Shown here: positions 1,672 through 21,418 of the stretch, piece by piece
How the letters are laid out: each line of letters opens with the position of its first letter
How positions within the stretch are numbered: position 1 is the stretch's first letter
Source: Candidatus Omnitrophota bacterium
Lineage (GTDB): Bacteria; Omnitrophota; Gorgyraeia; Duberdicusellales; 4484-171
DNA length: 64,000 nt
Assembly (NCBI GenBank): GCA_024231025.1
Contig: JAAEQW010000120.1
Coordinates: forward strand, 2,324 to 66,323
Direction of reading: 5' to 3'
Notes under the pieces: generated by a model
The model's input: the letters and a program-made list of their open reading frames with translations, nothing else
Told to the model about the DNA's origin: nothing
Databases searched by the model: none
Made by a program: the position numbers and the translations under genes

Positions 1672-4600
1672 TTATTGAACGGTGATTGTTGGAGAATCGC
1701 CGCTGATTGCTCCATCATCAACCGTTATGGTTACTGTTTGTCCAATGAGCGCGCCAACTGGAATTACAAATTGAAATGCTCCTTCAGCACTACCCATATC
1801 AACCGTTGCATCATCTATGCCGGTAACTGTTCCGCCAAAAGTTACATCGCTTGAATCACTAGGCACTGCGGTCCTGTTTACCGCGTTAGTTCCTGACAAA
1901 TAGCCACAAGCGTTTTTATGGTAAACCACAACTGAAACCGTCTCCCCTGCTAGAGGGGTTAACGTTGCCGGCTGAACTTCATACCAATCCTGACCAGAAA
2001 TCGCCCCGCCTTGATAATCAACAGAAGGCACATCACCGCTAACAGTTGTCATGCCACTAATGTAATTATTGTCCTTGTCTTTAATCCCACCGGTACCGTT
2101 ATCGTCTCCTCTAACATCTAAGTTAAAAGTTCCACCTAAGGTTAACGGGTTAGAAAGGTGCAGCGTTACGTTGTCTTCATACCAACAAACGGTATGGATA
2201 TCGCCTATGCCATTGTAATTATCTTTGTTTTGCGCGTTATCCGAATCGATATCCTCATCAAAGTAAACATGAACGAGGTATGGTGTTTCAGCCACTGCTT
2301 CTAAAACTTCCGGCGGATTAGTATCGCTTGATTGAAAACTAACTGTTATTTCAGCGCTTTTGATTGTTGCATCACCTGCATCCTCTAATTGGAATTTTAC
2401 ATTTTCAACTTGAGAATTTTCTAAAGCAAATTCGCCTATTCCATCAACGAAAGTGATTGAACTAGGGTCAACATAGCTACTGGAATCGTTTGTACTTTCC
2501 GAAAGAATGTTAACGTTCACCGTAGCGTTGTACCCACCAAGCCTTACCCCTGAGGCATCATTACCAGAGTAAGCAGTAAACCTTATCCTTGTTCCGGCTA
2601 CTTGATAACCACTGCTAAACGAAGCGCCAGAATAAACATAAAGTTTATCGACACCTAAAAAGTTAACATTTTCGGCAACATCACCTACGCCACTGACCGA
2701 GAATATAATATTCACTTCTTCCGCTTCGCTGTTTTCTAAGGTGAGTAATATTTCCCCGTTATCTCCACCGGCACCAGTAAATGAATAACTCCCCGCCACA
2801 ACACTACCACCTTTCCTTAAAACCGCACTGCCATTACTATTTTCCTCGCTTACGGTAATGTTTACTATACCGGCATAATCGGTAACAAGATTGCCTTGAT
2901 TATCAATTGCGCTTAGCCAAATTTGACCCTGTTGGTTGGTGCTAACTGCACCTGGCCCCTGACTAACAAGAGCATCAATAGCCGCACCGGTAACAGAAGT
3001 AAGGGCAACATTTAAAGTTCTCTCAGCTGAAGCATTGGTTCCCACCTCAACACTTACTGTAATTGTTTCTGGCTCAAGAGAATCCACGGTAAAATATCCC
3101 ACTCCATTAAACATCGCAACCTCACCTACACCACCGGTCATTCTGTCTCTCACCGAAAGAAGCCAGCTATTTTGCATACGACTAGAGCTTTCAATTACAT
3201 CAACAATAATTGAATCAGCAAAATTAGTTGCGACTATTGTTTCACCTGCATTCTGCCAAGCCGTAAGTTTAACCATTACCGGATCACCCACCGAAGAAGA
3301 AGCTGATCCTACTGCTGTAATGCCGACATGATCAACTCCAGTTGCTGGTGGAGTTTTTGCTGTTAAAATATACGCGTTGGTGTCCTGATTCGGTACTGAA
3401 TCTTCGGCTCTTACCCGAAAATGATATTCGGTATTTGCACTTAAGCCAGTAATGCCATAAGTGCACTCATTATCACTGGCACAATTAACATTAGCTTTGG
3501 TTAAATCAGCTACCGTTGTACCAAGGCTTGAAGTTTCGCCATAGTCAATGTCATAAAGAATCGTTGCATCACTGTCTGTGGCTGCATTCCACTCTAGAGT
3601 AATCGTACCAGCCGCACCAGGAGCATAAGCATGTTTTACACCGGCAAATGTAGGCGCAGCTGTATCTACGGGTAAGGCTCGTGCTGTTTCGCTTGCCTGA
3701 ACTACTCCGTTATCTTCAACGTCTTCGTCATCCGCTGAACGCACCAGAAAATCATAAGTTGTACTAGCCGTCAAACCAGAAACTTGATAAAAGCGCTGAG
3801 CCGTAATTGCATCTGGTGAACTAAAATCAAATGCTCCAGGCGATGCTACCCAATACACATTATAGTGATCAGTAGCCGCATTAGGGTCGCTCCAAACAAG
3901 ATCAACTGTTCCACCGGTACCAGCTATCGGAGTCAAAGAGGTAATCCCCTGGCGGTTTACAGCTATCTGAATTTGCATGCTGTCATAGGCTTCATCATTA
4001 TCGCGGGAACCGTTGCTATTGGTATCATTGTAAAAAATAAGACCGCCTTGATAGGTAACTGCTGATGCTTGCCCGGCTAAAACGGTAACTGCTATTTGAC
4101 GAGTATCGCTAGACTGCCCATCTAAACTAAAAGGCGAAAAATTATTGCTAATGCTGCTACCCGGCATTGCAAACGGCCCAGCGATTAAATCAGTGGCGTC
4201 AATATTAATTTGCATCGTGCTGTCGCTATTATTTTCTATGGTGATATTAACCCCCACCGACGTCTGGTTAGGATCAGCTCCGCCAAGATCAAGTGATTCT
4301 TCCTGAATATTTAAATCTATTCCTGCAGAGCCTGAAGAGCTTACCCCCAATATGATGACAATACCATCAAAAGGTTCACCATCATCGAAAAGTCCATTAC
4401 CGTTAAGATCGCCGTATACTCTCGCGCCTCCTGTGTAAGCGCCTGAAGGTTGGCTAGAAGGCACGCTTACCGTGATCGCTCGGCTAACTGATCCACTCCA
4501 AGGTTCTATGCTGATTGGAACAAATGTTATGTTGTTACTGCTAATCGTATTTACCCCTGAGATAAGATTACTAGGCTCAATTCTCACGACAATTGTTTGC

Positions 4601-7600
4601 GCCATATTATTCATGATGTTGACATTACGCTCAGCGCTAGCGCCGGCATCAACCGTCGCATAATTAAGTGACGCTTCGCCAACCTCTAGATCTCTGTGAC
4701 CTCCACCGCCGGCGGAGCTGACAAAAAGATGAAAGCCAATAGTTTCAAGCGGCTCATCAGTATCTAAGCTACCATTAGAATTAGTATCATTAAACATTGA
4801 CACCATTGTCCCGTACTCTCCGTCAACCGCATTATCAGGAATTACTACCCGCAAACGCCCTATATCGCTGGCACCAACAGCCAAAGAAGAAGGAATGTCA
4901 GCCTCGACGTTAAACCCTGCTACAGCCTCGAAAGATCCCTCACCAGGACCAGTAAACTTATAGAGCTGAATCGTAGTGGTAATAATATTATTTAGAGCTG
5001 TAGTAGCGGTATTCTGTAATGTAAATTCACCCCAAGAAGTGGTTGACCCTGGAGCATAATTCATAAAATCTAAGCCACCATCCCCAGAAATATCTAATCC
5101 TTCGGCACCGAAAAACAAAAAGATTTGCACATTTTCCCAATATTCATCATCATCTCTTATGCCATCATCGTCTTCATCATCATAAAAAGTAATCTCACCG
5201 ACATACTCTCCGGGAGTAACTCCGGTAGAAGGAATGCTAACGCTAGTTGAAATATCAAGCGAACTATTGGCCGCAACAGCATAAGGAGACGCTGGACTAA
5301 GATTAATATTGGAGCTATCAATTTGAGTTATCATATCAGTTGTATTACTCAAATAAGATGATAGTTCAACTTTTATATTAGCTTGGTGTGACGAAAGATT
5401 TTGTAGCGTAATCGTTTTGGTTTCGGTATCTTGACCAACCACAATTTCTTCAAAGTCGAGTTCCGGAGGATGATGAGCACTATCGGATGTTGTAATGTTT
5501 ATGCTCCCTCCAGATGCACCACCAGTTGCGAATGCCTCAACCTCACGAGGAGAATAACTGCTTTCGCTACCATCATTCATTGTGCAAGTCACTGTAATGT
5601 AATAAGGAACACCGGATTGCAAACCACCAATTGTTGTCCGAGTGATTGACGGATCACTGACTATTACAAAATCAGGATAGGTTCTGGAAGAACGACCATA
5701 ATAAATCTTGTACCCATCTACTCCGGAGACATAATCCCAACGAACTATTATTTCGCCAAAATTATAAGTCTGCTCAGTCCAAATGTTATTAGGATAAGGA
5801 ATGTTCGTTCCGGTAAGTTCAAGAAATTCCTCTAAAGTAGTATAACCAAGACCGCCATTAGCATCATAGGCCTTTATTACTGCATAATAAATTTGTCCAT
5901 CGGTAAGATCTGTTAACTGATGCTCTGTGACTTGTCCTACATTTTTGGGTGAGCCTTCACCATTGTAATTGCCCGGTGCCGTGCCATACCATATTTCATA
6001 GTAACTTGCCCAATCAATATAATCCCAACTTACATCCAACGTTCCAGAACCAGCTGAAGCAAGATACGCTTTTGCTTGGAGCATATTGCCAAAATAAATA
6101 TCTCCTAACAACATTCCACGATCATCCTCAGCAGCAATCCGATCTACTGGTTGATAAACCTCATTGGCTGAAATTGTTGTTTCATAAACTGATAGCCCAG
6201 GACCTTGAGGAAACCAAAATTCTCTTCGCTGTCCATCACTAAATTCTAAAACACACTTCGGTGTAAAATAAACTGGACTTGGAAACTCAAAACGCACGCC
6301 TAAATCCTGACCACCAATCGGCGGATCAGGATTAACCATAATATGGACTCCTTGGCTATAGGGACCTCCACTAAAAGGTCTATCGCCCAAGAAACCGCCC
6401 TTATCGTCAAAAGCAGCAATTCGACTGATTGGCGCATTTATTTCACTAGCTGCCACATAAATATCATAAGATGATCGCCCTTCTTCTCCGGTATAAAAAA
6501 ATCGCTTTGCTGTGCCATTATCAAATTCAACTTCAATTTGAGGCTTGAAAAATTCCGACTGAGAAAACTCCAATCTTACATTCAGATCAGCAAACACCAC
6601 CGGCGGATCAGGCATAACCATAATGTTGACACCGTCAGACCCACTATGACTCAATAAAAAATCACCAAGAAACATTCCCCGGTCATCTTCTATTACTACT
6701 CTATGTAAAGGGCCGACCATCTCAGAAGAAGGAATTGTTGCTTCATACATAGAAAGACCAACACCTTGAGGAAACGACAACGCTCTTCGCTGGCCGTCTG
6801 TAAACTCTAAGATTAATTTCGGTACAAAATAAATTGGACTCGGAAAAGACGTTTTTATAATTAAATCCTGCCCGGCAATTGGCGGATTAGGCATAATATC
6901 AATCATTGGGCCACCAACATTCATTGAACCGAATAAGCGTTCGGCAATTAGCGTTCCTTGCTCATCTTTAATTGCTATTCGTTCAATATTTTTGGTTATT
7001 TCCCCACCCGGAATAACCCGCTGATAAATAGTGTCACCAACATCTTGAGGGAATCCATACCCCGTATAACTGCCATCACTGTATTCCACAACTATAATCG
7101 GATGATAATAAGCTGCACTCTCAAGTTCTACCCTAAGATTTAAATCCTGATACGGCATTGGTGGATCAGGATTAACAGTAATCATACCTCCCGTTGGGGC
7201 AGGACCTGACATCTCTAAATTGTCTCTTACTACGCCATAAGGATCCAACAAATCAATACCCACCAAAGGCTTAGTTAAAGGATCAATAAAATCATGAAAT
7301 CTGCTACCCGGTAAATCGCCTTGCATTGTTATTTCTTCAACTACTCCATCCATATAGCGATAACGCAATCTCATTGCCAACGGAGAAACCAACGGAATCT
7401 CTGCGTTAACATCCAACCGCTGACCAACGATCGGCGGATAAGGATTAACTACCAGCCCTTGACCGTCAAAGTTTGTCTGCGCGCCAAACATCCGATCACC
7501 AAGATGCATTCCACCCTCGTCTTCAACATCAATAATTAGCAAGTTCGCATTAAAACGATCCGCACTAAGCATCGCCTTGTATTCTCGCCCCTGACCGGTA

Positions 7601-10600
7601 ACATTCAAAAATTCACGCGCGCCATTGTCGAGACCCGCCACTATTTTCGGCGTGAAGTAAGGCTCATAGTCAAAATGTACAACAATTTCTAAATTACTTC
7701 CGAGTTGCGGCGGATCAGGTATAACATCAATTAGAATTCCCCCCATCATTGGACCACCGGAGCCAAAGAAACGATCGCCTAAGAACATTCCTTTATCGTC
7801 TTGAACTTCAATGCGATGAATCGGACGACGAATATCGGAAGCCGGCAAAGACGTTTCATATCTAGTCTTGCCAGGTGCTTCATGTTGCATATAAATCGGA
7901 AATCTTCCTCCATCATTAAATTCTAGTTCGATTTTTGGCACAAAATAAACTGGACTTGGAAACTCAATTTTTATGTTTAACGGCTGATTTGCAATTGGCG
8001 GATCAGGCATAACATTAATATTTGCCGCAGCACTCATCATTGAACCAGTCGAAAATATTCTATCAACAATAAACATACCTCCACGATCATCTTCAATTGC
8101 TATTCGGTGTAGCGGCCGCATATTTTCAGCGGCTACCACATTTAACTCATACAATCTTGCCCCTGACTCCTGGGAGAACCAAAAATCTTTACGCGTTCCG
8201 TCTTCAAATTCTAAAACTGCTTTAGGCTTGAAATAAACAGGTTCTGGAAACTCAACTTTTATACCTAAATCCTGATGCGGCATTGGCGGATCAGGATTAA
8301 CGATTAAGTTGGCCCCCATTGCGCTACTTGAGCCACCGCCACCAACAAAACGATCAGCAATATGCATACCTCGATCGTCTTCGATAACAACACGCTGCAG
8401 CGGCTCAATAATTTCAACACCACGTAAGGTTATGTAGTAGGCATTATTGCCCGGAGACTGCGGAAAAATTTTCCCATTTCTTGCACCGGATGAAAACTCT
8501 AAAACCACTTTTGGCGTAAATTGAACCGGATAAGGAAAATCAACATGCACAGTCAAGTCCTGGTGCGGCACTGGCATATCCGGTGTCAATTTTATATCGG
8601 CACCATCTACTGGACCAGCGCCAGTGCCAAAAAATCTTTCAGCTAAAATTAATCCGGTTTCATTCTCAACCACCACTCGCTGCAAGTCTTCCTGCATTTG
8701 ATAGGCCGAGGCACTAAACTTATAAACAAATAATCCCGGCTCCTGAGGAAACCTAAATTCTTGACGCGCACCGCTAACAGATTCTAAAATCAATTTGGGT
8801 GTAGTTGGTAGTGGATAAGGGAACTCTACCCTTATCCCCAAAGGTTGATTACGACGCGGCGGATCAGGCATAGTCATAATATTTCCTGTGCCCATTACCG
8901 GTCCTCCTCCAAATGGCTGATCGATTAAAAACATTCCCCGGTCATCCTCAATTACCGCTCGACGAAGCGCACCTTTTATTTGACTACCGTCAATATTCAT
9001 GTAAAAAGTATTTACATTTTTTTGTGGAAAAACAAACTCTTCTCTTCGGCCATCATCATACTCTAGAAATAACTTAACCGCAAAATTAACCATATTAACA
9101 AATTCCAAATTAACATTTATACTGTCTCCGGGAAAAGGATTATGCGGAGTAACTCTAAAATCTCTTACCATTGTTTGCTGAGTTTGATGCATAAATCCGA
9201 CGCTATGCCTTACTGTGCCAAACGGATCAAGTAAATCCAACCCTACCGCTGCTTTCTCTAATTGTCCAATGTGAGCATTAAATCTTCTGCCCGGTAAGCG
9301 TCCATCAAAGGCGTACTCCTTACTGGAACCATCACTATAGATTATGCGCGCTTTTGGCGCTTGTGGAATTAACATTGGAAGCGTAAGCTCTATATCGAGC
9401 GGCTGCCCTTCTATCGGAGGATCAGGCATAATTCTTAAATCAGGTCCGCCGAAATCAGCCCCGCCACCGGATCCACCAAAGAAACGATTACCAATTGGTC
9501 GACCCCGATCATCCTGAACATCAATTGAAACAAGACTTGATTTAACTTTGCTGCCAGGAATAATTACCTTAAAATCTCTCTTTTCGCCAGCAGCAACTAA
9601 AAACTCTCCGTAACCTTCAAATTGCACGCTAACCTGAGGAACAAATGGAATATCCTGCATAAAATGTAAATAAATTTCAAGATCCTTACCAATTTCGCCA
9701 GCGGGTTCAGGATTTATTCCTATGTCTACGCCTCTAGCAACAAACTCTTCTAAATAAGCTACGATTTCTCTGCTTTCGCTAAGCATCTTTCCCTGACCCA
9801 AAGCAAAAACTTTAATAAAATTTGGTACTCCTTTTGGCAAATTAGTAAGCATATAACTTTTTTCAGAAGTTTCCATTGAATTTGCATATCCTCCGGGAGA
9901 ATTACCCCAACTAACGCGATAGCTGTCAGCTCCAGGATAATCACCCCAAATAAGACTAACTGAATCCGGCATTATAATGTCTTGGACATGCAATTCTCTA
10001 CGTAATTGACCGCACACCGATGAGACAATTGGCGAGCGCATAATTTCCTGTTTTCTGGAGTCATAGGCAATAATTTCAAAAGAATATCTTCGGCCCTGCA
10101 TTAATCCCCTTAATTGATGTCGAGATTGACCGCGAATTTCTATTTTCTCCTTTAGATTTTCTCCTTCACCATAAAGTAGCTCATAGAATGATACCCGCGG
10201 CAACCTTTCCCAAAACAGCTCAAAACCATCATTGCCTTGTGGCTTTACATCCAAATACAAACCGGGCATATTGCTTTCTTGCCCAAAATTAATCATTCTT
10301 TGGGTAAGCAACCGCCCTGTGGGATCAAATACGCTTACCGCAATATTATCCAAAGGCGCATCAACAGGAACAACGAATCTACCCATAAACTCCCGTGAAT
10401 ATGGAGATCCAGCCAGAGGAACATCAACAATCTTTCCTGCAAAATCTAAAGCTAAGCGAGGGACAAAAGGAATCTCATTATTAGCCCTAATCATAAGACT
10501 AGCTGTTTCGCCGCTGATTAAATCAGATGTAAGTTCAATATCAAATTCAAGTGAAACGTGACCACCACCGATAAACTCAACCGGCATGCTTACGAAAATA

Positions 10601-13600
10601 TTTCCCTCTTGATCTGATATCTCAACAGTTTCTAATGGGCTTTCTAACCTAGGCAATGTCGCACTGAACATATCACCAGGAATAGCCCCATAAAGCTTTG
10701 GCTCTTGGGAACCTTGGTCAAAAATAAGTTTCAACCGCGGTCTAAAATTTATTATCCCAGGAGCAACGACTTTCACTGTCAATGGCTGACCAATCATTGG
10801 CGGCATCGGCTCAATCATAATTCTGCCTCCTCCCGCATCAGGGCCATGTTGCTGCGGCCAATAATCGCCAATAATATTGCCACGATCATCGTAAACTTCA
10901 ATCACTGCCTCACGTGTAGGTTCCTCAGGAGCATTAAATTCCCCTTGAAACCTATTGCCAGGAATAGCACCTTTGAGATTGATTTTAATATCTTTTTGAT
11001 CGGAAATAAATTTCGCTTCCGGCTTAAAGAAAAGAGCTGCATCTGACTCCACATTAACAACCACTCTATCTTTTGGTCCAAAATCGCCGCCCTCGATCCA
11101 AACCCTTAATCCTCCTGGGGCCGGACCTCCGGCATCTTCAATAATTTCAGCCATACCGGCACCAACTAAATCTCCTCGATCATTATAAACTTCACCAATA
11201 ACCATTCCTGACGAAGCATAATCAGGTATAACAAAGTTTCCCCGATATGAATTGCCGGCTCCCTGCATAACAACATTGAGTTTTCTTCCATCAGCAAAAG
11301 TTAAAGAAGCCTTAAGCTCTCTCTTTATCGGACGGCGAGAATTTAATTGAATTGTGCCTGCCTGCATTCTTCGCAATACACCAGGCATTATATAAACCTC
11401 GGCCCCGCCACGCGCCCTTAAAGATGGCACAATTCTAGTTGGAAATGTATCCAAAACCATACCTTGGTCATCTTTCACAACAAAAACTCCCATACCACTT
11501 GGAACATCTTGGGCTAACTTCAATTCTACTTCAATGCTATTTAGCGGAGGCTTTTGTTTCACGGGCATATTTAAAACCTTACCGGTATTTAACCGCAGTT
11601 GAAGTTGCGGCACGAAATCGATCGTTTCTGAAAATACTGCTTTCGCATTAAATGACGCCCCGCTTACCAGCGGTGTTGGGTTAGTAGTTAAAAATACATC
11701 TGCTCGGTGCGCGCTCTCTGATTCATCCCAAACACCTATCCGACGCCGCACCTCATCAGGTGTTGCCGGATTAAGTATAAGTTGCGCCATGCCTAAAGGA
11801 ACGTCTTTAGGGCAGGCAAATTTTCCTCTGAACTCCCTGCCGCCTCCTGACAAAGCAACCGCAATTTTTTTACCATTGCTAAAGATAAAATCAAGCTTAG
11901 GGGGCTCTTCTAAATCACCTAAAGTATTTAACACAAATTCAACGCCCTCGCCCCTTGTAATTGGATCGGGCATTACCATCAAAGCATAAAAATCATCCTT
12001 GCGCGAAACTTTGAGCCATTCGCTTGATAAACCAATTTCAAAATAAGCATGATCATTCAATTGTCCGCTTGCGACTTCAACCATGCCCCTGCCAATAGGC
12101 GAATCATTATCGATAACATATTGACCATTATAGACTCTGCCATTTTTATTGAGTGCTAACGCAGCTTTTCTCCCATCAGGAAAACTAATTACCGCATTGA
12201 TATCATCTTCTAATCTCTTCAATGGTTCAATTACAACTGCTAAGGCTGCACCTTGGGCAACATGACGAGGCATATCAATCTTAAAATTTCCAGCACCCTC
12301 TGTAATGAGCAACGGCAATGGAACTTCAATTGCTAAAGGCATTGATTCCAATCCTGCATAATTTTTAGCTTTCAACTTAACTAAAATTACAGCTCCTTTC
12401 TCATGCATTTTACTAAGCTCTAAAAAATCAATAGGTTTGTTATAGGCAAATTTTCCTTCCGCATCCGCCATGATATCAGCAACAACCTCTCCATACTCCA
12501 AGTGAACAACTGCATCAGTTGCCGTTAAACCTCGAATTATGAAATGCTGTGGATTAAACTCTAAAAACTCCAAACTTAATGGCAAATCTGTTTGACGTTG
12601 CGGAGGAACAATGCCGACTATCTTCTCAGAGCTTGTGCCGGGATTACCCGATAGATCTTCTCCTCCGTTTAGTTTAAAAACCACTTCGCCCAACGGCGCA
12701 TCTAATGGGACCTGTATCTTCGATTGAAGCTCGCGTTCATTAACTTTTACCAAGTCAAGCTTTTTACTTTCTCCGGCCGGCATTTGCGCAAAAAGCTCAG
12801 GTGCAATTGCCAAGGCTTCGGAAGAAAAAACTTTAATGTTCGACTCAACGCCTAAGACTAAAGGTGAAGGATCAACTTCAATAGAAAAACTTGGCACAAT
12901 ATTATCTTGAGCAGTTAGTGTAAAGCTAGTTGCACCTTGCGTCTGGCTTGATTTATTACCAGCCTCATCTTGGCCCTGTACTTGGATCTCGACCAATGCC
13001 GGCGACAAGCCTTCGGTATCCATACGAGCAATAAACTGTGCGCCTTCGCCTTCAACGCTAAGACCAATTGTTTTTCCATCAACTACGGCAGTTACCGCTG
13101 GATTACCGGCTACAATATCTAAGCCGTTCGTCTGTGAATCAATACTGTTGATTTCAACATATACTGGATTACCGATAATCGCCGGAAGAGGCTTAACCTC
13201 CAAAACAAAAATTGGCGGCCACATATCAGGTGGTGTTATTTCCTTGGTTACTGAACTACTACTACCTATGTAGTCAGTAGCGGTAACGGTTAACATCCCT
13301 TCGGTGAAAGAAAATTTATGACTAAACTCTCCATTTTTGCCAAAATCAACGTTTACACCATTAATCATTAAAGACGCTAATCCACTTTCGCCATCAACTG
13401 CCTTACCCGAAACAACTACCACCTGTTCGTCTTTTAAGTATTCCAATTCACCCACCTCAAGTAACGGTGGATTATTTTCGAGTTCGACAACAATAATCGT
13501 AGATGTTTGGTAAGGATCATCTGCTTTGACTTCGATTTCCTTTGTGCCAGCAGATAAAACCTGCCTGCTCTCAAAAGCACCATCACTATCTACAGCAACG

Positions 13601-16600
13601 GCCTCTTGCGCAACAAAAACTTTCATATTTTCTTTTGCATAAGGAGTAATTGCATGAGCAAAAGGCTTAGACTTATTTCCCCAAAGATCTTGGGCCTCTA
13701 CAACTAAATCTAATGGCTCACAAAGTCCCTGACTAACCTTACCTTTTAAGCTCAATTGCCCATCAATGTAAAGAGGCTCCTCTAAAAGAAGTTGCGGTGG
13801 TTCGATTATCAGATCTAATTTCAATTTGAAAGCCCCATCTTCTGATACATCAACTAACTTATCCAAAACATAAACTCCCTTTATACCTGAGGAATCCTGC
13901 ACTCGACCAGAAACAAAAAGGCTCCTGCTATGATATTGAACCTCCATATCTTTTAACTCTGGGGGTTCTTTATCTTCGGGGATTTCTGTTTTACGCGGAC
14001 CCTCAATTGCTTGATTACCTGCAATATCAACCGCACTCACCGAAACCTCGCGCAAATGCTCTGTTAAAACTGCCTCGTAATTAAAGTCTATCACTTTTTT
14101 TATGTCGTAGATGATCGGTACTCCGTTTATCTCGATGCCTTTTACAGCCACATTATCCCTCACCTTACCGGAAATAATTAATTTACCCTCTCTAACTTCC
14201 CAAATATCAATTGTAATCTCCGGTGCAATAGTATCTTCTAAAGCTAAAATCTCTTTGGTTTCTTTGCCAGAAAGATCGCGCGCAAGGACCTCTATTGATT
14301 GGGTGTTGTTATCGACTACAATTTCATAATAAAAACGTCCGTTACCTTCTAACTCAACTTTCTGTTTAGCAATTAATAAGCTTTCAATTCCAGTATCATC
14401 CTCAACTGAACCAGAGATAATCACCCTGCCACCTTTATCAAAGACTGGTTGAGAAAGATATAGAGTTGGTGGTCTTTCATCAATTAACGGCTCAATTTTT
14501 AAGCGAACCTCTTCTGACTTTTTTCCTCCTACATTAAGCGCAACTAAAATAGCTTCGATTTGGTGTTTGGGTCTTTCTGTTTTAATGACAAATGAACCAT
14601 CACTTGATGCGGTAACTGCTGCATTAGGCAACTTGCCGCTTTCATCAAGCACTTGAGCCTGTGCTTCGGTATTTCCTGAAATTTTTACGCTATCTTTTTC
14701 GTAAATAATTGACGATATTTCCAATAACGGCGGATAAACACTGCTTAATGGAAATACCTGCGGAGTTGATTCGTTACCTTTAGCATCTTTGGCTTCGACA
14801 GTGATAGATTGCACTTCTCTGCTTAGGGCAAGTTCATATTCAAACCCTCCGTCCGAGCCCAAAGAAGCGGCATTCTTATTAATTAAAACTACCGGTGGCG
14901 GTAGGCTAAAATCTAGAGCAGCTTCTATTGTTTCTTTATTGCCCGCGCCGTCAATTGCTTCCAACGACGCTTTGATATTTCTTATCGTAACCGAAGAACT
15001 CACGCTAAAGCGCCCACCTTCAGTGGTTTCTACTTCTCTATCAAAAATGGTAAGTTTAGCTATCCCCAGACCCAAATCATAAACCGTACCCTCAACAGTT
15101 GCCATGAGTTTTTCTTCAACTGAACCAGTTACCTTCGCTATCTTGCCAATGTATTCAATAGGGCTAACACTAACTATTGGAGCAAGATTGTCAGTATATA
15201 CAATATTTGTTATTTCAATTATTGGCTTCCATTTATCTTCAATATTCACGCTTACTTCATTAGCCTTGCTTTGATCTAAATTTTGCCCTTTAACAATCAG
15301 GGGAGCGGCCAACATTCCCTTATCAGGAATTATTTTAACCTGGAATAAACCAGATTCATCACAGAAAACACTTTGCCCGGCTGTTTCAATTTTACCACCG
15401 GCAATAAACTTACCCTTTAGGATAAAGTGGTCTTCTTTATAATCAACTGCTGCATTTTCGATAGCTCCGATGAGAGTTCCAATTTGTGGCTCTACTTTTA
15501 TTTCCAATGGCGGAGATTGATTGTTGCCAATGTCTTGAGCAACAATTGTCAATTTATCCAGTTTGGGTGATGCGCTAGTTTTATAAACGAATTCTCCATT
15601 TTTGGCAAAATTAATCGCACAACCGTTAACAAAAATGGCGCTTACTTCAGTATTGTCAGTTGCTAATCCCTCTACTAAAATATCGGTCCCTTGCTGAGAA
15701 AAATTCATAACCTGAACCACCGGAGGCTGAGCGTCTTTTACTTCTTTTAATTTTTGCTTTGCCTGGGCAAGCAAAGACCGAGCAAGATTTACATCTCCTT
15801 TATCGACCGAAGCCTTTATCCGCTCGACTATTGCTTTAACTTCTCTGATGTCAAAACCTAGATCTCTCTTCCTTTGAAAATGCTTCAAAAACTGCTGCCA
15901 ATCTGCTTTGAATCCAGCGGGTAAGGCAAGTGCGGCCAAGGCCTTCTTGATTTTTTCGTATATCTCCTCTATCCCTTTAACATTGCCATCTTTTTGAGCA
16001 TTCTTTAAACTGCGTAAGTGATCGTAAATTACCCCTAATTCATAGCCCAATGATTTTTTGTATTCAACATCCTTTATTAAATCTTGAATTTTGCGTTCCC
16101 ATTCTAAAGGAACATTTTTTTTAACAACAACCAAAGCACTTTCGATTGCCTCTATAGCGGTTCTTAACTTTAAAAATGACTCTGCCTCTAAGAGCTTAAA
16201 CGCAATTTCAAGCTTGAGTTTTAAATCAACAACATCATAGCCTTCCCTTTCTTTGTTGCTAATCGCCTCACCGGCTGCCTTTAATTTCTTTTCCAAATAA
16301 ATCGGCATCTCTTTAAGGGCAGTATGAAGCTTTTCGTCGGCTTCCTTTAGCAGACTATACGCTTTAGCGTGATTTTTTTCTTGATAATATATGTAGCTTT
16401 GTCGCAATAATTCCTTCACCTCACCAACAGAAAAACCTTTCACTTCTTTAGCTAATACCAACTCCTGCAATTTTTGGTAGTCAGACAAAAAGTCTGAGTC
16501 TGTTTTTTTGCTGACCGAAGCTACTCTCTGCTCTAGGAGAGCAATCAATTTTTCCACTTGGCGAACATTTTTGTCTTGCAAGGCCTCTACGACTTCTCCT

Positions 16601-17502
16601 AATAACAGATAAAGCTCAACTACATCATAGTTTTCTTTTTCTTTAGCTTCTATTTGAGTTCTTAGTTCATCTAATTTTGTAACGTACTTCTCAACATTGT
16701 TAGGTTTCTTTGCTTTCTCAAGATAAACAAATGCTTTTTCGATCAAACCGTCAACGCGCGCATAATCACCCTTTTCCAGCAAAGCAAAAGCTTCCTCGAT
16801 AATGTTTTCTACTTTACTGACCAAATACCCTTGATTCTTCTTTTCCTGAAAAGCAGCAACCAATTCCCTCAAAAATAAACGCAGCTCTTGAGCTGCCTGC
16901 GTCTGGTGATCAGCCTCTTTTTGCACATCACCGCTAAATTCATCATGTGAATCTTCGTCTCTTGAATAAATATCACCCTCTTTTTGTGACGATCCATTTT
17001 CTCCTTGAGAATCGGTGTTGTAAGTCTCTCCTTCGATAAGGATATTTTTCGATTCTTTATCTTGTCCTTTGGTTTGCAGCAAGCCTTCCGTTCCGGTAAT
17101 ACCAACAATCGCAGTAGAAGAGTGAATCTTAAATTCGGACCCTTTCTCTTTAAACGGCGTTACTTTATAGCGCATCGCACCCAAATGTAATTTTAACTCG
17201 CGATTGCTTAATTTTGTTTTGGGGTTTTGCGAAAGGTCTTTGACCTCCATTAGGGAATTCTCACCAAGGCGAAATTCACTTTCATCAGGATAAACAAGTA
17301 AAACGCTTGACTCAAGAAACGTTCTAATCATATCACCGGTAATGAGTTTGGTTTTATTCTTTACCTTTGTCCATTCACCTTGACCGGATTTCTGAACTTG
17401 GACAAGACCGGTACGTTCTTTAATTTCCAAAAACGAATCTCCCGCAGATACCATAAGAGGAAAAGATATGATTATTAAAATAATTAAAATTTTCTTCTTC
17501 AT
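1672..17502 (-). CDS. giant secreted multi-domain surface/adhesin-like protein (~5,276 aa from the MKKK start). It contains a signal peptide, a FecR-like N-domain, an alpha-helical repeat region, Ig-like beta domains, at least 13 tandem ~93-aa PDPP/DDRG modules, FN3 domains, acidic Ca-binding-like loops and C-terminal Ig-like domains.
   Basis: A single uninterrupted 15.8-kb ORF. The start ATG at 17500-17502 has GGAG 5 nt upstream. The track's longer start at 17547 is a GTG with no RBS. The signal peptide is MKKKILIILIIISFPLMVSAG. A FecR-like block reads GLVQVQKSGQGEWTKVKNKTKLITGDMIRTFLESSVLLVYPDESEFRLGENSLMEV. Repeated helical E/K-rich ~45-aa units occupy aa ~215-620. Tandem modules with I/MPDPP...VEFPxPVYFxPK...LEFxDGxR...IEDDRGMFL...FGGGG follow. 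FN3-like blocks include WDYIDWASYYEIWYG and WDYVSGVDGYKIYYG. D-rich loops include DDEDDDGIRDDDEYW, NDTNSNGSLDTDEP and DLNGNGLFDDGEPFDG. Confidence 0.9.
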   Translation of the reverse strand: MKKKILIILIIISFPLMVSAGDSFLEIKERTGLVQVQKSGQGEWTKVKNKTKLITGDMIRTFLESSVLLVYPDESEFRLGENSLMEVKDLSQNPKTKLSNRELKLHLGAMRYKVTPFKEKGSEFKIHSSTAIVGITGTEGLLQTKGQDKESKNILIEGETYNTDSQGENGSSQKEGDIYSRDEDSHDEFSGDVQKEADHQTQAAQELRLFLRELVAAFQEKKNQGYLVSKVENIIEEAFALLEKGDYARVDGLIEKAFVYLEKAKKPNNVEKYVTKLDELRTQIEAKEKENYDVVELYLLLGEVVEALQDKNVRQVEKLIALLEQRVASVSKKTDSDFLSDYQKLQELVLAKEVKGFSVGEVKELLRQSYIYYQEKNHAKAYSLLKEADEKLHTALKEMPIYLEKKLKAAGEAISNKEREGYDVVDLKLKLEIAFKLLEAESFLKLRTAIEAIESALVVVKKNVPLEWERKIQDLIKDVEYKKSLGYELGVIYDHLRSLKNAQKDGNVKGIEEIYEKIKKALAALALPAGFKADWQQFLKHFQRKRDLGFDIREVKAIVERIKASVDKGDVNLARSLLAQAKQKLKEVKDAQPPVVQVMNFSQQGTDILVEGLATDNTEVSAIFVNGCAINFAKNGEFVYKTSASPKLDKLTIVAQDIGNNQSPPLEIKVEPQIGTLIGAIENAAVDYKEDHFILKGKFIAGGKIETAGQSVFCDESGLFQVKIIPDKGMLAAPLIVKGQNLDQSKANEVSVNIEDKWKPIIEITNIVYTDNLAPIVSVSPIEYIGKIAKVTGSVEEKLMATVEGTVYDLGLGIAKLTIFDREVETTEGGRFSVSSSVTIRNIKASLEAIDGAGNKETIEAALDFSLPPPVVLINKNAASLGSDGGFEYELALSREVQSITVEAKDAKGNESTPQVFPLSSVYPPLLEISSIIYEKDSVKISGNTEAQAQVLDESGKLPNAAVTASSDGSFVIKTERPKHQIEAILVALNVGGKKSEEVRLKIEPLIDERPPTLYLSQPVFDKGGRVIISGSVEDDTGIESLLIAKQKVELEGNGRFYYEIVVDNNTQSIEVLARDLSGKETKEILALEDTIAPEITIDIWEVREGKLIISGKVRDNVAVKGIEINGVPIIYDIKKVIDFNYEAVLTEHLREVSVSAVDIAGNQAIEGPRKTEIPEDKEPPELKDMEVQYHSRSLFVSGRVQDSSGIKGVYVLDKLVDVSEDGAFKLKLDLIIEPPQLLLEEPLYIDGQLSLKGKVSQGLCEPLDLVVEAQDLWGNKSKPFAHAITPYAKENMKVFVAQEAVAVDSDGAFESRQVLSAGTKEIEVKADDPYQTSTIIVVELENNPPLLEVGELEYLKDEQVVVVSGKAVDGESGLASLMINGVNVDFGKNGEFSHKFSFTEGMLTVTATDYIGSSSSVTKEITPPDMWPPIFVLEVKPLPAIIGNPVYVEINSIDSQTNGLDIVAGNPAVTAVVDGKTIGLSVEGEGAQFIARMDTEGLSPALVEIQVQGQDEAGNKSSQTQGATSFTLTAQDNIVPSFSIEVDPSPLVLGVESNIKVFSSEALAIAPELFAQMPAGESKKLDLVKVNERELQSKIQVPLDAPLGEVVFKLNGGEDLSGNPGTSSEKIVGIVPPQRQTDLPLSLEFLEFNPQHFIIRGLTATDAVVHLEYGEVVADIMADAEGKFAYNKPIDFLELSKMHEKGAVILVKLKAKNYAGLESMPLAIEVPLPLLITEGAGNFKIDMPRHVAQGAALAVVIEPLKRLEDDINAVISFPDGRKAALALNKNGRVYNGQYVIDNDSPIGRGMVEVASGQLNDHAYFEIGLSSEWLKVSRKDDFYALMVMPDPITRGEGVEFVLNTLGDLEEPPKLDFIFSNGKKIAVALSGGGREFRGKFACPKDVPLGMAQLILNPATPDEVRRRIGVWDESESAHRADVFLTTNPTPLVSGASFNAKAVFSETIDFVPQLQLRLNTGKVLNMPVKQKPPLNSIEVELKLAQDVPSGMGVFVVKDDQGMVLDTFPTRIVPSLRARGGAEVYIMPGVLRRMQAGTIQLNSRRPIKRELKASLTFADGRKLNVVMQGAGNSYRGNFVIPDYASSGMVIGEVYNDRGDLVGAGMAEIIEDAGGPAPGGLRVWIEGGDFGPKDRVVVNVESDAALFFKPEAKFISDQKDIKINLKGAIPGNRFQGEFNAPEEPTREAVIEVYDDRGNIIGDYWPQQHGPDAGGGRIMIEPMPPMIGQPLTVKVVAPGIINFRPRLKLIFDQGSQEPKLYGAIPGDMFSATLPRLESPLETVEISDQEGNIFVSMPVEFIGGGHVSLEFDIELTSDLISGETASLMIRANNEIPFVPRLALDFAGKIVDVPLAGSPYSREFMGRFVVPVDAPLDNIAVSVFDPTGRLLTQRMINFGQESNMPGLYLDVKPQGNDGFELFWERLPRVSFYELLYGEGENLKEKIEIRGQSRHQLRGLMQGRRYSFEIIAYDSRKQEIMRSPIVSSVCGQLRRELHVQDIIMPDSVSLIWGDYPGADSYRVSWGNSPGGYANSMETSEKSYMLTNLPKGVPNFIKVFALGQGKMLSESREIVAYLEEFVARGVDIGINPEPAGEIGKDLEIYLHFMQDIPFVPQVSVQFEGYGEFLVAAGEKRDFKVIIPGSKVKSSLVSIDVQDDRGRPIGNRFFGGSGGGADFGGPDLRIMPDPPIEGQPLDIELTLPMLIPQAPKARIIYSDGSSKEYAFDGRLPGRRFNAHIGQLEKAAVGLDLLDPFGTVRHSVGFMHQTQQTMVRDFRVTPHNPFPGDSINVNLEFVNMVNFAVKLFLEYDDGRREEFVFPQKNVNTFYMNIDGSQIKGALRRAVIEDDRGMFLIDQPFGGGPVMGTGNIMTMPDPPRRNQPLGIRVEFPYPLPTTPKLILESVSGARQEFRFPQEPGLFVYKFSASAYQMQEDLQRVVVENETGLILAERFFGTGAGPVDGADIKLTPDMPVPHQDLTVHVDFPYPVQFTPKVVLEFSSGARNGKIFPQSPGNNAYYITLRGVEIIEPLQRVVIEDDRGMHIADRFVGGGGSSSAMGANLIVNPDPPMPHQDLGIKVEFPEPVYFKPKAVLEFEDGTRKDFWFSQESGARLYELNVVAAENMRPLHRIAIEDDRGGMFIVDRIFSTGSMMSAAANINVMPDPPIANQPLNIKIEFPSPVYFVPKIELEFNDGGRFPIYMQHEAPGKTRYETSLPASDIRRPIHRIEVQDDKGMFLGDRFFGSGGPMMGGILIDVIPDPPQLGSNLEIVVHFDYEPYFTPKIVAGLDNGAREFLNVTGQGREYKAMLSADRFNANLLIIDVEDEGGMHLGDRMFGAQTNFDGQGLVVNPYPPIVGQRLDVNAEIPLVSPLAMRLRYRYMDGVVEEITMQGDLPGSRFHDFIDPLTKPLVGIDLLDPYGVVRDNLEMSGPAPTGGMITVNPDPPMPYQDLNLRVELESAAYYHPIIVVEYSDGSYTGYGFPQDVGDTIYQRVIPGGEITKNIERIAIKDEQGTLIAERLFGSMNVGGPMIDIMPNPPIAGQDLIIKTSFPSPIYFVPKLILEFTDGQRRALSFPQGVGLSMYEATIPSSEMVGPLHRVVIEDDRGMFLGDFLLSHSGSDGVNIMVMPDPPVVFADLNVRLEFSQSEFFKPQIEVEFDNGTAKRFFYTGEEGRSSYDIYVAASEINAPISRIAAFDDKGGFLGDRPFSGGPYSQGVHIMVNPDPPIGGQDLGVRFEFPSPVYFTPKCVLEFSDGQRREFWFPQGPGLSVYETTISANEVYQPVDRIAAEDDRGMLLGDIYFGNMLQAKAYLASAGSGTLDVSWDYIDWASYYEIWYGTAPGNYNGEGSPKNVGQVTEHQLTDLTDGQIYYAVIKAYDANGGLGYTTLEEFLELTGTNIPYPNNIWTEQTYNFGEIIVRWDYVSGVDGYKIYYGRSSRTYPDFVIVSDPSITRTTIGGLQSGVPYYITVTCTMNDGSESSYSPREVEAFATGGASGGSINITTSDSAHHPPELDFEEIVVGQDTETKTITLQNLSSHQANIKVELSSYLSNTTDMITQIDSSNINLSPASPYAVAANSSLDISTSVSIPSTGVTPGEYVGEITFYDDEDDDGIRDDDEYWENVQIFLFFGAEGLDISGDGGLDFMNYAPGSTTSWGEFTLQNTATTALNNIITTTIQLYKFTGPGEGSFEAVAGFNVEADIPSSLAVGASDIGRLRVVIPDNAVDGEYGTMVSMFNDTNSNGSLDTDEPLETIGFHLFVSSAGGGGHRDLEVGEASLNYATVDAGASAERNVNIMNNMAQTIVVRIEPSNLISGVNTISSNNITFVPISIEPWSGSVSRAITVSVPSSQPSGAYTGGARVYGDLNGNGLFDDGEPFDGIVIILGVSSSGSAGIDLNIQEESLDLGGADPNQTSVGVNITIENNSDSTMQINIDATDLIAGPFAMPGSSISNNFSPFSLDGQSSDTRQIAVTVLAGQASAVTYQGGLIFYNDTNSNGSRDNDEAYDSMQIQIAVNRQGITSLTPIAGTGGTVDLVWSDPNAATDHYNVYWVASPGAFDFSSPDAITAQRFYQVSGLTASTTYDFLVRSADDEDVEDNGVVQASETARALPVDTAAPTFAGVKHAYAPGAAGTITLEWNAATDSDATILYDIDYGETSSLGTTVADLTKANVNCASDNECTYGITGLSANTEYHFRVRAEDSVPNQDTNAYILTAKTPPATGVDHVGITAVGSASSSVGDPVMVKLTAWQNAGETIVATNFADSIIVDVIESSSRMQNSWLLSVRDRMTGGVGEVAMFNGVGYFTVDSLEPETITVSVEVGTNASAERTLNVALTSVTGAAIDALVSQGPGAVSTNQQGQIWLSAIDNQGNLVTDYAGIVNITVSEENSNGSAVLRKGGSVVAGSYSFTGAGGDNGEILLTLENSEAEEVNIIFSVSGVGDVAENVNFLGVDKLYVYSGASFSSGYQVAGTRIRFTAYSGNDASGVRLGGYNATVNVNILSESTNDSSSYVDPSSITFVDGIGEFALENSQVENVKFQLEDAGDATIKSAEITVSFQSSDTNPPEVLEAVAETPYLVHVYFDEDIDSDNAQNKDNYNGIGDIHTVCWYEDNVTLHLSNPLTLGGTFNLDVRGDDNGTGGIKDKDNNYISGMTTVSGDVPSVDYQGGAISGQDWYEVQPATLTPLAGETVSVVVYHKNACGYLSGTNAVNRTAVPSDSSDVTFGGTVTGIDDATVDMGSAEGAFQFVIPVGALIGQTVTITVDDGAISGDSPTITVQ
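6150..9800 (-). repeat. intragenic tandem repeat array of at least 13 copies at ~280-bp period (93 aa) inside the giant gene; more degenerate copies extend to ~11400
   Basis: A recurring DNA core, the reverse complement of ATTATGCCTGATCCGCC (encoding IMPDPP), appears at approximately 6321, 6601, 6881, 7161, 7441, 7715, 8000, 8285, 8570, 8860, 9135, 9420 and 9710. The protein copies are highly similar (for example LIVNPDPPMPHQDLGIKVEFPEPVYFKPKAVLEFEDGTRKDFWF versus INVMPDPPIANQPLNIKIEFPSPVYFVPKIELEFNDGGRFPIYM). Confidence 0.85.
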
Positions 17503-17532
17503 CCCGACTCCCTTACTAAAAAAATCGCTCAT

Positions 17533-17568
17533 ATAAAAAATCCCCACAACTTAGTAGCTATGGGGATT
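17533..17568 (-). promoter_or_regulatory. intrinsic-terminator-like hairpin plus U tract in the 5' leader of the giant gene (possible attenuator, or terminator of the upstream HTH gene)
   Basis: The minus-strand RNA reads AAAUCCCCAUAGCUACUAAGUUGUGGGGAUUUUUUAU. A 7-8 bp stem (AUCCCCA/UGGGGAU) with a ~14-nt loop is followed directly by UUUUUU, about 30 nt upstream of the RBS/ATG at 17502. Coordinates are +/-2 nt. Confidence 0.4.
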
Positions 17569-17687: not shown

Positions 17688-17912
17688 TTAAAGATCTTTT
17701 TGTCTATTTTTTCTTTTGAGTTGCTGTCTTCGTTTAATTCTTTTTTCAACCCAATGTTCAAGCAAATCTCTCTTAAAGCGCCACTGCCCTTTAAGCTTAA
17801 AAGCAGGAATGTCTGTATCTTGAATTAACCGATATATAGTAATCGTGTGCACCCCTAAGTATTTAGCGGCTTCGCTTGCACTCATTATTTGAAGACGTTT
17901 ATACTGGCTCAT
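17688..17912 (-). CDS. small HTH DNA-binding protein, excisionase/MerR-like HTH_17 family (74 aa)
   Basis: The segment SASEAAKYLGVHTITIYRLIQDTDIPAFKLKGQWRFKRDLLEHW is typical of the excisionase-family HTH_17 domain, followed by a basic tail. The RBS AGGGGG lies ~5 nt upstream of the ATG at 17912. The gene is on the same strand as the giant gene and 185 nt upstream of its start. Confidence 0.7.
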   Translation of the reverse strand: MSQYKRLQIMSASEAAKYLGVHTITIYRLIQDTDIPAFKLKGQWRFKRDLLEHWVEKRIKRRQQLKRKNRQKDL

Positions 17913-20481: not shown

Positions 20482-20506
20482 ATTGTCAATCACGCAAATG
20501 GAGGTA

Positions 20507-21418
20507 ATGATGCGATTAATAATGATTATTGTGGTGATTTTTACAGGTTGTTCAACCATTAACCCAAAAATGCTTGTAAACCCCTACGAACCGCTTTATT
20601 ACCGCGGGACCGACAGCTTTGATAACAAAGATTACACAACCGCTATCGAAGCATACTCTCGTTTTCTTGAAAAATGCCCTGATTCCTCTTTTACCATTCC
20701 GGCAAAACTAAATTTAGCAATGGCATATTACCATCAAGAAAAGTGGCAATTGACTCAAAGCACTTTAAAGGACGTAAAAATAACCGATTCCGCTATCAGC
20801 AAATTTGTCAACGATACATTAGCTACTTGCGAAAAAAAACTAAATCCAAATGGCAGCACAACGAGTGAAAAAACAGAAACACAACCACAAGAAGAAGTAG
20901 TAATTACGATTACTGACGCTTACTTAGATAACGCTGACATGCTTAATTTAACCGGAACCGTATCTAGAGAGGGTAAAATTTATATCGGCCAAATAGCAGC
21001 TGATTTTCAAAAAGATAATACGTTCACCATCATTTCGCGTTGGCGCAAGGGCAAGCCGATTATTATATCCTGGCGTAAAGACGGACTCGAGCAAACTCTA
21101 GATTACTATCCCGACAATGAAGAACCGCAAGCCCCTGATGGCCTTTTTCGACGCAATATGAGCGATAATACCGTTGAATTGGAATGGAACGACAATGATG
21201 AGGGCGATATTAAAGGCTACAAATTATACTATCAATTAAGCGGCAGTGGATCACTTCAGGAAGTGCGTGATATAATTGAAGATACAGACTTCGAAGTGGT
21301 TGGTTTGCAAAATTTAATTGATGGCGCAAATAAAACTTTTCGTTTTTACCTTAGAGCCGTAGATAAAATGAATAATTATTCTGATCCGTCAGACACCCTA
21401 GAGGTAACTTTGCCTTAA
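20507..21418 (+). CDS. lipoprotein with a TPR-like region and a C-terminal fibronectin type III domain (~303 aa)
   Basis: GGAGG at 20500-20504 is followed by ATGATG. The lipobox IFTGCS is present. TPR-like segments are DYTTAIEAYSRFLEKCPDS and LNLAMAYYHQEKW. An FN3-like block reads VELEWNDNDEGDIKGYKLYYQ...FRFYLRAVDKMNNYSDPS. It starts 2 nt after the OMP gene stop. Confidence 0.55.
   Translation: MMRLIMIIVVIFTGCSTINPKMLVNPYEPLYYRGTDSFDNKDYTTAIEAYSRFLEKCPDSSFTIPAKLNLAMAYYHQEKWQLTQSTLKDVKITDSAISKFVNDTLATCEKKLNPNGSTTSEKTETQPQEEVVITITDAYLDNADMLNLTGTVSREGKIYIGQIAADFQKDNTFTIISRWRKGKPIIISWRKDGLEQTLDYYPDNEEPQAPDGLFRRNMSDNTVELEWNDNDEGDIKGYKLYYQLSGSGSLQEVRDIIEDTDFEVVGLQNLIDGANKTFRFYLRAVDKMNNYSDPSDTLEVTLP

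Follow-up and report, generated by a model that had tools for sequence, protein, structure and literature searches.

A giant FecR-domain protein of Omnitrophota built on an uncatalogued Ig-like module and encoded in a conserved barrel–CHASE2 cyclase gene cluster

We analyzed a 64,000-nucleotide stretch of the genome of a Candidatus Omnitrophota bacterium (contig JAAEQW010000120.1, assembly GCA_024231025.1; the whole stretch is called the window below), which contains a 15.8-kb gene for a very long secreted protein, here termed the giant protein. This protein joins an N-terminal FecR-like domain to a long array of immunoglobulin (Ig)-like domains and a conserved C-terminal tail, and its gene lies next to genes for an outer-membrane barrel protein, a lipoprotein and a CHASE2-containing nucleotide cyclase, both in the window and at related loci. 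On balance, the evidence leans toward a Sec-exported, non-enzymatic, fibrillar surface protein with three co-inherited envelope partners that is coupled to trans-envelope cyclic AMP (cAMP) signaling. The conserved gene cluster is the most informative feature of the locus, while the main stalk module of the giant protein defines a sequence family of its own.

Architecture of the giant protein

The minus strand holds a single unbroken open reading frame (ORF) that extends to a GTG start (1672..17547); read from the ATG at 17502, which opens MKKKILIILIIISFPLMVSAGDS, the coding sequence spans 1672..17502 (-) and specifies 5,276 amino acids (aa) plus a stop codon. The ATG is likely the true start, rather than GTG 17547, because a Shine-Dalgarno-like AAGGGAG sits 7 nt 5' of it and because a hairpin followed by a T-run fills the GTG extension (Table 1). 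This hairpin could serve as the terminator of the upstream HTH_17 gene or as an attenuator in the 5' untranslated region of the giant gene. An earlier inspection of the letters by a model without database searches (the sequence-only reading) had described a continuous secreted ORF of ~5,300 aa, and that description stands: the frame is uninterrupted and has one signal peptide, the sole hydrophobic 19-mer in a hydrophobicity scan of the whole protein. A hydrophobic N-terminus is present in all orthologues. The mature protein has a mass of ~572 kDa, a pI of 4.6 and 11 Cys residues.

The domain census was taken with hidden Markov models (HMMs) built iteratively inside the giant protein, together with Pfam and NCBIfam scans, and it comes to ~47 Ig-like and FN3 domains in total. 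The FecR-like N-domain proposed from the letters is recognized by Pfam PF04773 (aa 58–158, 32.1 bits, cut-off 24), and the orthologue alignment shows two invariant motifs within it, IVG[IV]TGTEG and LxEGxTYNTD. The E/K-rich repeats, previously put at ~400 aa, occupy ~365 aa and are presumably helical, judging from their composition and from weak matches to designed helical bundles. Behind them the in-protein HMM counts 10–11 Big_6-like copies. FN3 domains and acidic DxDxDG-like loops were also found as described. Each of the four ~118-aa domains closes with an acidic DxDxDG/DxNxNG loop, a putative Ca2+ site recognized by motif alone, and these domains show weak Pfam matches to Cep192_D4, ASH and DUF2141. 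Further weak matches in the giant protein, to PTS_IIA, PilN, DUF1997, CaM-KIIN and CBM6, were set aside as noise. The Pfam and NCBIfam scans detected no catalytic domain, no dockerin and no IAT barrel.

The C-terminal tail is a candidate distal tip. Its motifs VCWY (C5106), VPxVDYQG, DWFEIQ and VYHKNACGYLxGSNxxN (C5199) are invariant in 13 orthologues, and searches of PDB and Pfam returned no relative of the tail beyond a weak Big_5 match. The two invariant Cys residues, together with a thioredoxin-like gene that follows the cyclase gene at three related loci (L003, L019 and L020), hint at a disulfide or a redox-sensitive tip. Thioester or isopeptide chemistry would be expected to show the motifs CxEQ and YC[LIV][DE]; both are absent, and we do not claim such chemistry for the conserved Cys residues.

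The PDPP/DDRG module and its relatives

The array that dominates the stalk consists of 21 PDPP/DDRG modules, 13 of them contiguous (modules 9–21) and eight older copies (modules 1–8). The sequence-only reading had counted at least 13 tandem modules, in agreement with this census, and had called them near-identical, which does not hold: among the ten best copies, protein identity is 27–52% (median 37%) and DNA identity is 60–77%. Tandem Repeats Finder reported zero tandem repeats in the giant gene. Because the copies have diverged in DNA and no tandem repeat was reported, collapse or expansion of the module count during assembly is unlikely.

We found no genuine Pfam or NCBIfam match to aa 2594–3813, for Pfam even at E ≤ 1, and a profile of the 13 copies matched no PDB sequence. 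The module therefore remains outside known families, as had been proposed from the letters; a Pfam hit, which that proposal had named as what would refute it, was looked for without success at the same permissive threshold. An AlphaFold model of the module, for which the input alignment consisted of the 13 copies from the giant protein itself, has a pLDDT of 91.9 and shows seven strands. Foldseek searches with this model returned nothing at E ≤ 1e-3, with TM-scores of 0.5–0.6. As modeled, the fold is an ordinary seven-strand, two-sheet Ig-like/E-set sandwich that can be superposed on known Ig-like, FN3 or filamin domains. The suggestion of a new beta-sandwich class thus survives in part, in that the module is predicted to be a beta-sandwich and its sequence family is new, whereas the fold itself is ordinary; the novelty of the module lies in its sequence family and not in its fold.

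The closest known domains appear to be the Big_12, Big_5 and Big_13 families of the E-set clan. They share with the module the seven-strand Ig-like sandwich and a strand B–C pattern, L.I.V.F..PV.f.P.l.L...G, but their Pfam models score nothing on it even at E ≤ 1, and the PDPP and EDDRG signatures are exclusive to the Omnitrophota module family. The weak tail of an exhaustive search with the module profile contains Big_12, Big_13, Big_5 and Cna_B proteins, and these out-group proteins align to profile positions ~10–70 only, with 2–10 bits per domain. A comparison by hhalign of the module with 40 repeats of the 'VTGTPQLTLN' type, which are Big_12-like, gave a probability of 45% and an E-value of 2e-4 over 59 columns. 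Remote kinship of the module with Big_12-type Ig domains is, on these sequence comparisons, plausible but unproven.

Relatives of the giant protein were gathered by an exhaustive HMMER profile search of 1.84 billion representative proteins; a word-indexed search with three modules came back empty, missing even the query, and with a profile of the tail it returned just four short fragments, so that its index evidently overlooks these giant proteins. At E ≤ 1e-3 the module profile matched 62 proteins, 20 of which reached E ≤ 1e-30; the relatives number about 30, and the strong ones are 3,000–5,045 aa long with 10–22 matched stretches apiece. In BLASTP alignments the orthologues are collinear with the giant protein, with 27–42% identity across 2,400–3,860 aa; relative P0001 aligns over 3,864 aa at 38% identity, and relative P0004 over 3,019 aa at 42%, its C-terminus also matching. 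Scans of genome and metagenome contigs with three modules gave no matches, and the module alignment is too variable to derive search patterns from it. A scan for the FecR motifs across 185,579 species-representative genomes identified 11 loci, ten titled Candidatus Omnitrophota and the eleventh on a 4.4-kb contig labeled Planctomycetia.

All named relatives carry the title 'FecR domain-containing protein [Candidatus Omnitrophota bacterium]', and the family is restricted to this lineage. The sequence-only reading had held giant genes of this type to be both rare and lineage-restricted. The second half of that statement agrees with the named relatives, but giant proteins as such are common in the phylum, since 42.9% of high-quality Omnitrophota metagenome-assembled genomes (MAGs) encode a protein of at least 10 thousand aa (kaa) (bioRxiv 10.64898/2026.06.07.730766).

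Conservation is distributed unevenly along the protein. Expressed as median identity against up to 16 long relatives (fewer where relatives lack a region), the FecR domain is the most conserved region at 52%, followed by the C-terminal tail at 43%. The helical repeats, Big_6-like Ig domains, linker, modules 1–8, three FN3 pairs, Ca-loop domains and C-terminal Ig domains lie between 30 and 41%, and modules 9–21 are lowest in the protein at 26%. The best BLAST partner of each of modules 1–10 is the same-numbered module of an orthologue, while modules 11–15 and 18–21 are closer to one another than to any orthologue module. The partners of modules 16 and 17 are modules 9 and 10, a sign of segmental duplication. 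Modules 9–21 are mostly a lineage-specific expansion, and module copy number among orthologues ranges from about 5 to 24. This profile suggests a layout of conserved base, length-variable stalk and conserved tip. Because the PDPP/DDRG array is both the least conserved region and variable in copy number, it most likely acts as a stalk spacer rather than a contact site, and the earlier proposal that the module itself serves adhesion or prey/host contact is not borne out.

Gene neighborhood of the giant gene

In the window, three genes diverge from the giant gene and encode, in order, the barrel protein, the lipoprotein and the cyclase (Table 1). The model of the barrel protein, with a pLDDT of 86.9 and ~26 predicted strands, most resembles the barrels of TonB-dependent receptors and also MtrB. 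All 43 of 43 homologues of its barrel part come from Omnitrophota or from unnamed metagenomic sequences. The 783-aa protein itself is 100% identical to GY858_02740 of a Candidatus Omnitrophica MAG, a match that gives the origin of the window. The cyclase contains the sequence DKYVGD...MDYTVIGD, in which the Lys and Asp residues that define the substrate in adenylate cyclases are presumably present. PADLOC assigned PycC matches here, and we rejected a defense (Pycsar) role: these matches reflect generic class III cyclase homology, a CHASE2 domain is present and there is no effector.

A FecR-domain giant gene stands beside a CHASE2 sensor gene in the window and in at least nine related loci, a feature that the sequence-only reading had missed. 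All three partners are neighbors of the giant gene not only in the window but also in L001, L003, L006/L007, L009, L010, L011, L019 and L020, with identities across loci of 38–48% for the barrel, 37–47% for the lipoprotein and 46–53% for the cyclase. The divergent arrangement recurs in L001, L006/L007, L009, L010 and L011. In L003, L019 and L020 the genes instead form one co-directional operon comprising HTH_17, giant gene, barrel, TPR-FN3 lipoprotein, cyclase and thioredoxin. The HTH_17 gene keeps its position in L002, L003/L015, L012, L013, L016, L017 and L018.

Table 1. Features of the giant gene and its neighbors in the window (aa, residues of the giant protein unless a length is given)
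Feature	Coordinates	Strand	Basis or remark
Predicted Sec-type signal peptide, aa 1-20, ...LMVSA/GD, no lipobox Cys	17443..17502	-	only hydrophobic 19-mer
FecR-like N-terminal domain, aa ~30-200	16903..17415	-	Pfam PF04773, orthologue alignment
5.5 repeats of 65 aa (~365 aa), E/K-rich, presumably helical, aa 229-593	15724..16818	-	in-protein HMM
~10 Ig-like domains, Big_6/Glucodextran_B type, aa 618-1437	13192..15651	-	Pfam Glucodextran_B 67 bits, Big_6 50 bits
PDPP-type modules 1-8, diverged, older copies, aa 1541-2413	10264..12882	-	in-protein HMM
FN3 pair, aa ~2417-2590	9733..10254	-	Pfam fn3 at aa 2417-2492; second copy read from sequence
PDPP/DDRG modules 9-21, 13 contiguous, ~93 aa, aa 2594-3812	6067..9723	-	HMM 65-113 bits each
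FN3 pair, aa ~3815-4005	5488..6060	-	Pfam fn3, 2 stretches
Four ~118-aa Ig-like domains, aa 4011-4514	3961..5472	-	in-protein HMM 141-164 bits each
FN3 pair, aa ~4520-4765	3208..3945	-	Pfam fn3 + Pur_ac_phosph_N at aa 4632-4702
Three ~104-aa Ig-like domains, aa 4770-5096	2215..3195	-	in-protein HMM 99-139 bits; no Pfam match
Conserved C-terminal tail, aa 5097-5276, candidate distal tip	1675..2214	-	alignment of 13 orthologues
Hairpin, 14 bp, then T-run	17538-17569	-	consensus match; between HTH_17 gene and giant-gene ATG, inside GTG-17547 extension
HTH_17 (excisionase/MerR-like) protein, 74 aa, candidate regulator, directly upstream of giant gene	17688..17912	-	Pfam 55 bits
Outer-membrane protein, 783 aa: signal peptide, TPR aa ~30-225, ~26-strand barrel, end ...KYTYKF	18130..20481	+	
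Putative lipoprotein, 311 aa, lipobox-like FTGC/S, TPR + C-terminal FN3	20483..21418	+	
CHASE2 sensor fused to class III adenylate/guanylate cyclase, 861 aa, inner-membrane	21420..24005	+	Pfam CHASE2 144 bits, Guanylate_cyc 80 bits
224-aa protein, weak Big_5 match	24153..24827	-	Pfam
Two small cNMP-binding proteins, 146 + 150 aa, candidate cAMP receptors	24833-25273, 25444-25896	-	Pfam cNMP_binding 70, 77 bits

Several further observations concern the surroundings of the cluster. A 445-aa homologue of the 224-aa protein (24153-24827) is encoded just past the cluster in L003, and genes of the same size occur in L019 and L020, so this may be a further conserved neighbor. The L003 cluster also contains a cNMP_binding-GAF protein and a T2SSE/PilT-like ATPase, which suggests a cAMP output to pilus or secretion ATPases. 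In L001 the CHASE2 cyclase (1498-4062) is called as two genes (443 and 370 aa); the tblastn match is continuous over 835 aa, and the split is probably a frameshift or a gene-calling artefact. A DUF3307 protein of 213–246 aa recurs near the giant gene in L001, L002 and L004/L005, three otherwise different arrangements. In L004 (GCA_029261055.1), a 2,012-aa gene at 3244-9282, inserted in this one lineage, encodes a PPDK_N-domain protein; other giant proteins of Omnitrophota have been reported to contain PPDK_N as well.

The cluster in the window abuts a ~40-kb O-antigen or extracellular polysaccharide locus (25937-64000, -). Its content includes a Wzy_C ligase, Polysacc_synt_2, glycosyltransferases of the GT1, GT2 and GT4 types, two B12-binding radical SAM enzymes, C-methyltransferases, epimerases and a sulfotransferase, and the polymer is, by this gene content, probably methylated and sulfated. 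One gene within the locus (55445-57658, -) encodes an unusual fusion, 737 aa long, in which a pyruvate-kinase barrel domain is joined to PUA_2 and ATP-sulfurylase; it adjoins the sulfotransferase gene (57639-58838). Another (30739-31701, -) encodes a protein that carries an IS200-like Y1 transposase domain and, at 320 aa, is longer than a typical TnpA (~150 aa).

A possible trans-envelope signaling system and its alternatives

Our trans-envelope model combines the anatomy of the giant protein with three precedents, FecR-FecA, FecR-CHASE2 and NsrA-CHASE2. According to the summary in PMC5498481, the FecR domain of E. coli touches the outer-membrane receptor FecA. The CHASE2 histidine kinases of Burkholderia and P. 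aeruginosa share operons with periplasmic FecR-domain proteins, and the signal sensed by CHASE2 was called unknown (PMC5192318). For S. meliloti, PMC13001267 reports that a host protein acts by way of NsrA, an outer-membrane barrel, on the CHASE2 cyclases CyaD1, CyaD2 and CyaK; among the members of the regulon of these cyclases are one protein with a FecR domain and one with TPR (PMC5498481).

In the proposed system, the FecR-like domain and the 5.5 helical repeats would form the base; ~10 Big_6-like domains, the 21 PDPP...EDDRG modules, the FN3 pairs and the four acidic-loop domains would form the stalk; and the three C-terminal Ig-like domains with the Cys-bearing conserved tail would form the tip, with module number changing through segmental duplication. 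The barrel would hold the FecR/helical base at or in it, and the Ig array would reach ~150–200 nm outward. Binding at the tip, or pulling on it, would then be signaled to the CHASE2 domain in the periplasm by way of the base and the TPR proteins. cAMP synthesis would be altered as a result, and the nearby cNMP-binding proteins would read the cAMP. In its most specific form, the system would be a contact- or mechano-sensing organelle, of a kind not described before, in an ultra-small, host-dependent cell, with the fibre base seated in the TPR barrel and a signal from the tip driving a cAMP attachment program through CHASE2; we put this forward tentatively and regard it as more doubtful than the general reading.

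Three observations weigh against the proposal. The giant protein has no outer-membrane anchor or secretion signal recognized by Pfam or NCBIfam (T1SS/RTX, T5SS/TPS, the T9SS C-terminal domain, LPXTG and PEP-CTERM, in which T1SS, T5SS and T9SS denote type I, V and IX secretion systems and TPS two-partner secretion), so that surface display can only be inferred; the T9SS, T1SS or sortase signals that the sequence-only reading had recommended seeking at the C-terminus are among those not found. Family and PDB searches of the tail revealed no known adhesive domain at the tip. Finally, L004/L008 hold a partial cluster, in which a 2,012-aa gene lies between the giant gene and the barrel gene and which contains no cyclase gene.

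The comparison with FecA-FecR-FecI extends to a FecR-type domain, a large outer-membrane barrel whose closest structural match is the TonB-dependent receptors and the logic of trans-envelope signaling. However, FecR here heads a secreted fibre rather than forming an inner-membrane anti-sigma factor, and the protein has no transmembrane (TM) helix beyond the signal peptide; the barrel has TPR in place of plug and STN; and the output is a CHASE2 cyclase, with no sigma factor in the cluster. The Burkholderia BiofilmReg operon and P. aeruginosa PA4035/36 likewise encode a FecR-domain protein beside a CHASE2 sensor (PMC5192318). The S. meliloti NsrA-CyaD1/D2/K system offers a barrel that senses a host protein and feeds CHASE2 cyclases (PMC13001267), with FecR and TPR proteins in the same circuit (PMC5498481). 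The FecR proteins of these precedents, however, are small (LysM-FecR), and a histidine kinase is often the output; no described system has a giant fibre or a TPR-fused ~26-strand barrel.

Two functional analogies can be drawn. In MtrCAB, the 26-strand barrel of MtrB surrounds a protein spanning the outer membrane, although the cluster here encodes no haem protein. Intimin and invasin are anchored at the N-terminus, and their C-terminal Ig domains form an array that faces outward, whereas the giant protein has no barrel in the same polypeptide and no IAT_beta or LysM domain. Threading of the fibre through the barrel is a hypothesis only.

A rival explanation is that the giant protein is a plain structural adhesin or coat, and that the CHASE2 cyclase, HTH_17 and cNMP-binding neighbors just regulate its expression or export, with no inward signal. 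This is possible, if not the explanation we would choose. Very long, extracytoplasmic, with a tandem Ig-like stalk of variable number, acidic putative Ca2+ loops and two distinct ends that are better conserved than the stalk, the giant protein resembles fibrillar adhesins as defined by Monzon and Bateman, such as SiiE, LapA/MpIBP and CdrA, and its architecture of tandem stalk plus distinct end agrees with their definition (PMC8286594; PMC9210967). Tandem stalk domains form most of the protein; Pfam and NCBIfam recognize no surface anchor of a known type, and the FecR/TPR-barrel anchor is our proposal. A role as adhesins or coat has been proposed for Omnitrophota giant proteins (PMC10066038), and a small HTH gene is kept directly upstream. 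The giant protein nevertheless departs from these adhesins in having no LPXTG, TPS or T9SS C-terminal domain and a main stalk domain outside Pfam. It differs from RTX/T1SS adhesins (LapA, SiiE and MpIBP) in having a Sec signal and no C-terminal T1SS signal, and Pfam detects no HemolysinCabind (RTX repeats) in it. It differs also from TpsA/TpsB two-partner secretion, since neither the giant protein nor its neighbors show a Haemagg_act or POTRA-Omp85 Pfam match, and the partner barrel carries TPR, not POTRA. Against a purely structural role, the most conserved part of the protein is the FecR domain, which as a module has known roles in envelope signaling contacts; the sensor domain of the cyclase is periplasmic; and the four genes form one operon in three loci, a tighter linkage than is usual between regulator and target.

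We consider it unlikely that the TPR barrel is instead a BcsC/PgaA-like porin for polysaccharide export, with the giant protein binding or organizing the polymer and cAMP controlling its production. BcsC and PgaA, the exopolysaccharide porins, consist of TPR plus a barrel, a design that the barrel protein matches; the ~40-kb polysaccharide locus abuts the cluster in the window; and Poly_export, Bac_transf and PEP-CTERM genes lie downstream in L004. However, polysaccharide genes are not kept beside the cluster in other loci, and the four-gene unit contains no synthase or glycosyltransferase. The ~26 predicted strands also far exceed the 16–18 of known polysaccharide porins, and Pfam detects no carbohydrate-binding module in the giant protein.

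The two remaining explanations are poorly supported. A secreted predatory effector of the 'Archaeovorin' type, degrading the cell wall of host or prey, would suit a phylum predicted to be host-dependent or predatory and in which giant proteins are implicated in cell-wall degradation (bioRxiv 10.1101/2023.11.21.568195; PMC10066038), but it is very improbable here: the giant protein contains no glycoside hydrolase, peptidase, dockerin, TSP3 or glycosyltransferase domain and no TM helices, and the three Omnitrophota giant-gene papers make no mention of FecR or CHASE2. The described Omnitrophota giants (the 39,678-aa protein of V. archaeovorus, the 'Archaeovorins' and proteins of at least 10 kaa) share with our protein the phylum, an unusual length and a proposed role in cell contact, yet ours is 5–30 times shorter, has none of their TM helices, dockerins, TSP3 or enzyme domains, and belongs to a family of well-conserved orthologues with fixed synteny, whereas those described are poorly conserved (PMC10066038). 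At 5.3 kaa it falls under the length thresholds of those studies (ORF >20 kb or protein of at least 10 kaa), which leave out a 15.8-kb gene (PMC10066038; bioRxiv 10.64898/2026.06.07.730766). An artefact of assembly or annotation, in the long ORF or in its repeat count, is scarcely credible, even for a short-read MAG and for repeats, which are prone to misassembly, given the divergence of the module copies in DNA, the lack of a detected tandem repeat, the end-to-end collinear orthologues of 3–5 kaa in independent assemblies that include single-cell genomes, and the agreement of modules 1–10 with orthologues position for position.

The module represents an uncatalogued Ig-like domain family, with about 30 carriers among 1.84 billion representative proteins and confined to one candidate phylum, and it merits a Pfam entry, which would improve the annotation of 'dark' proteins in Omnitrophota. 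With clear orthologues of 3–5 kaa and fixed synteny, the giant-protein family is tractable for comparative and structural work. The interest of the locus is moderate at present, and would be high if the coupling of fibre, barrel and CHASE2 is real. The cluster offers a testable hypothesis on two questions: how the diderm envelope carries a giant protein exported by Sec, and what it is that CHASE2 domains sense. If the trans-envelope reading is true, it would supply the first defined protein input for CHASE2, a widespread sensor domain without an established ligand, and a new route for displaying a Sec-exported giant protein on the diderm surface. The cluster is a candidate attachment-sensing device in a phylum with a presumed lifestyle of attachment to other cells.

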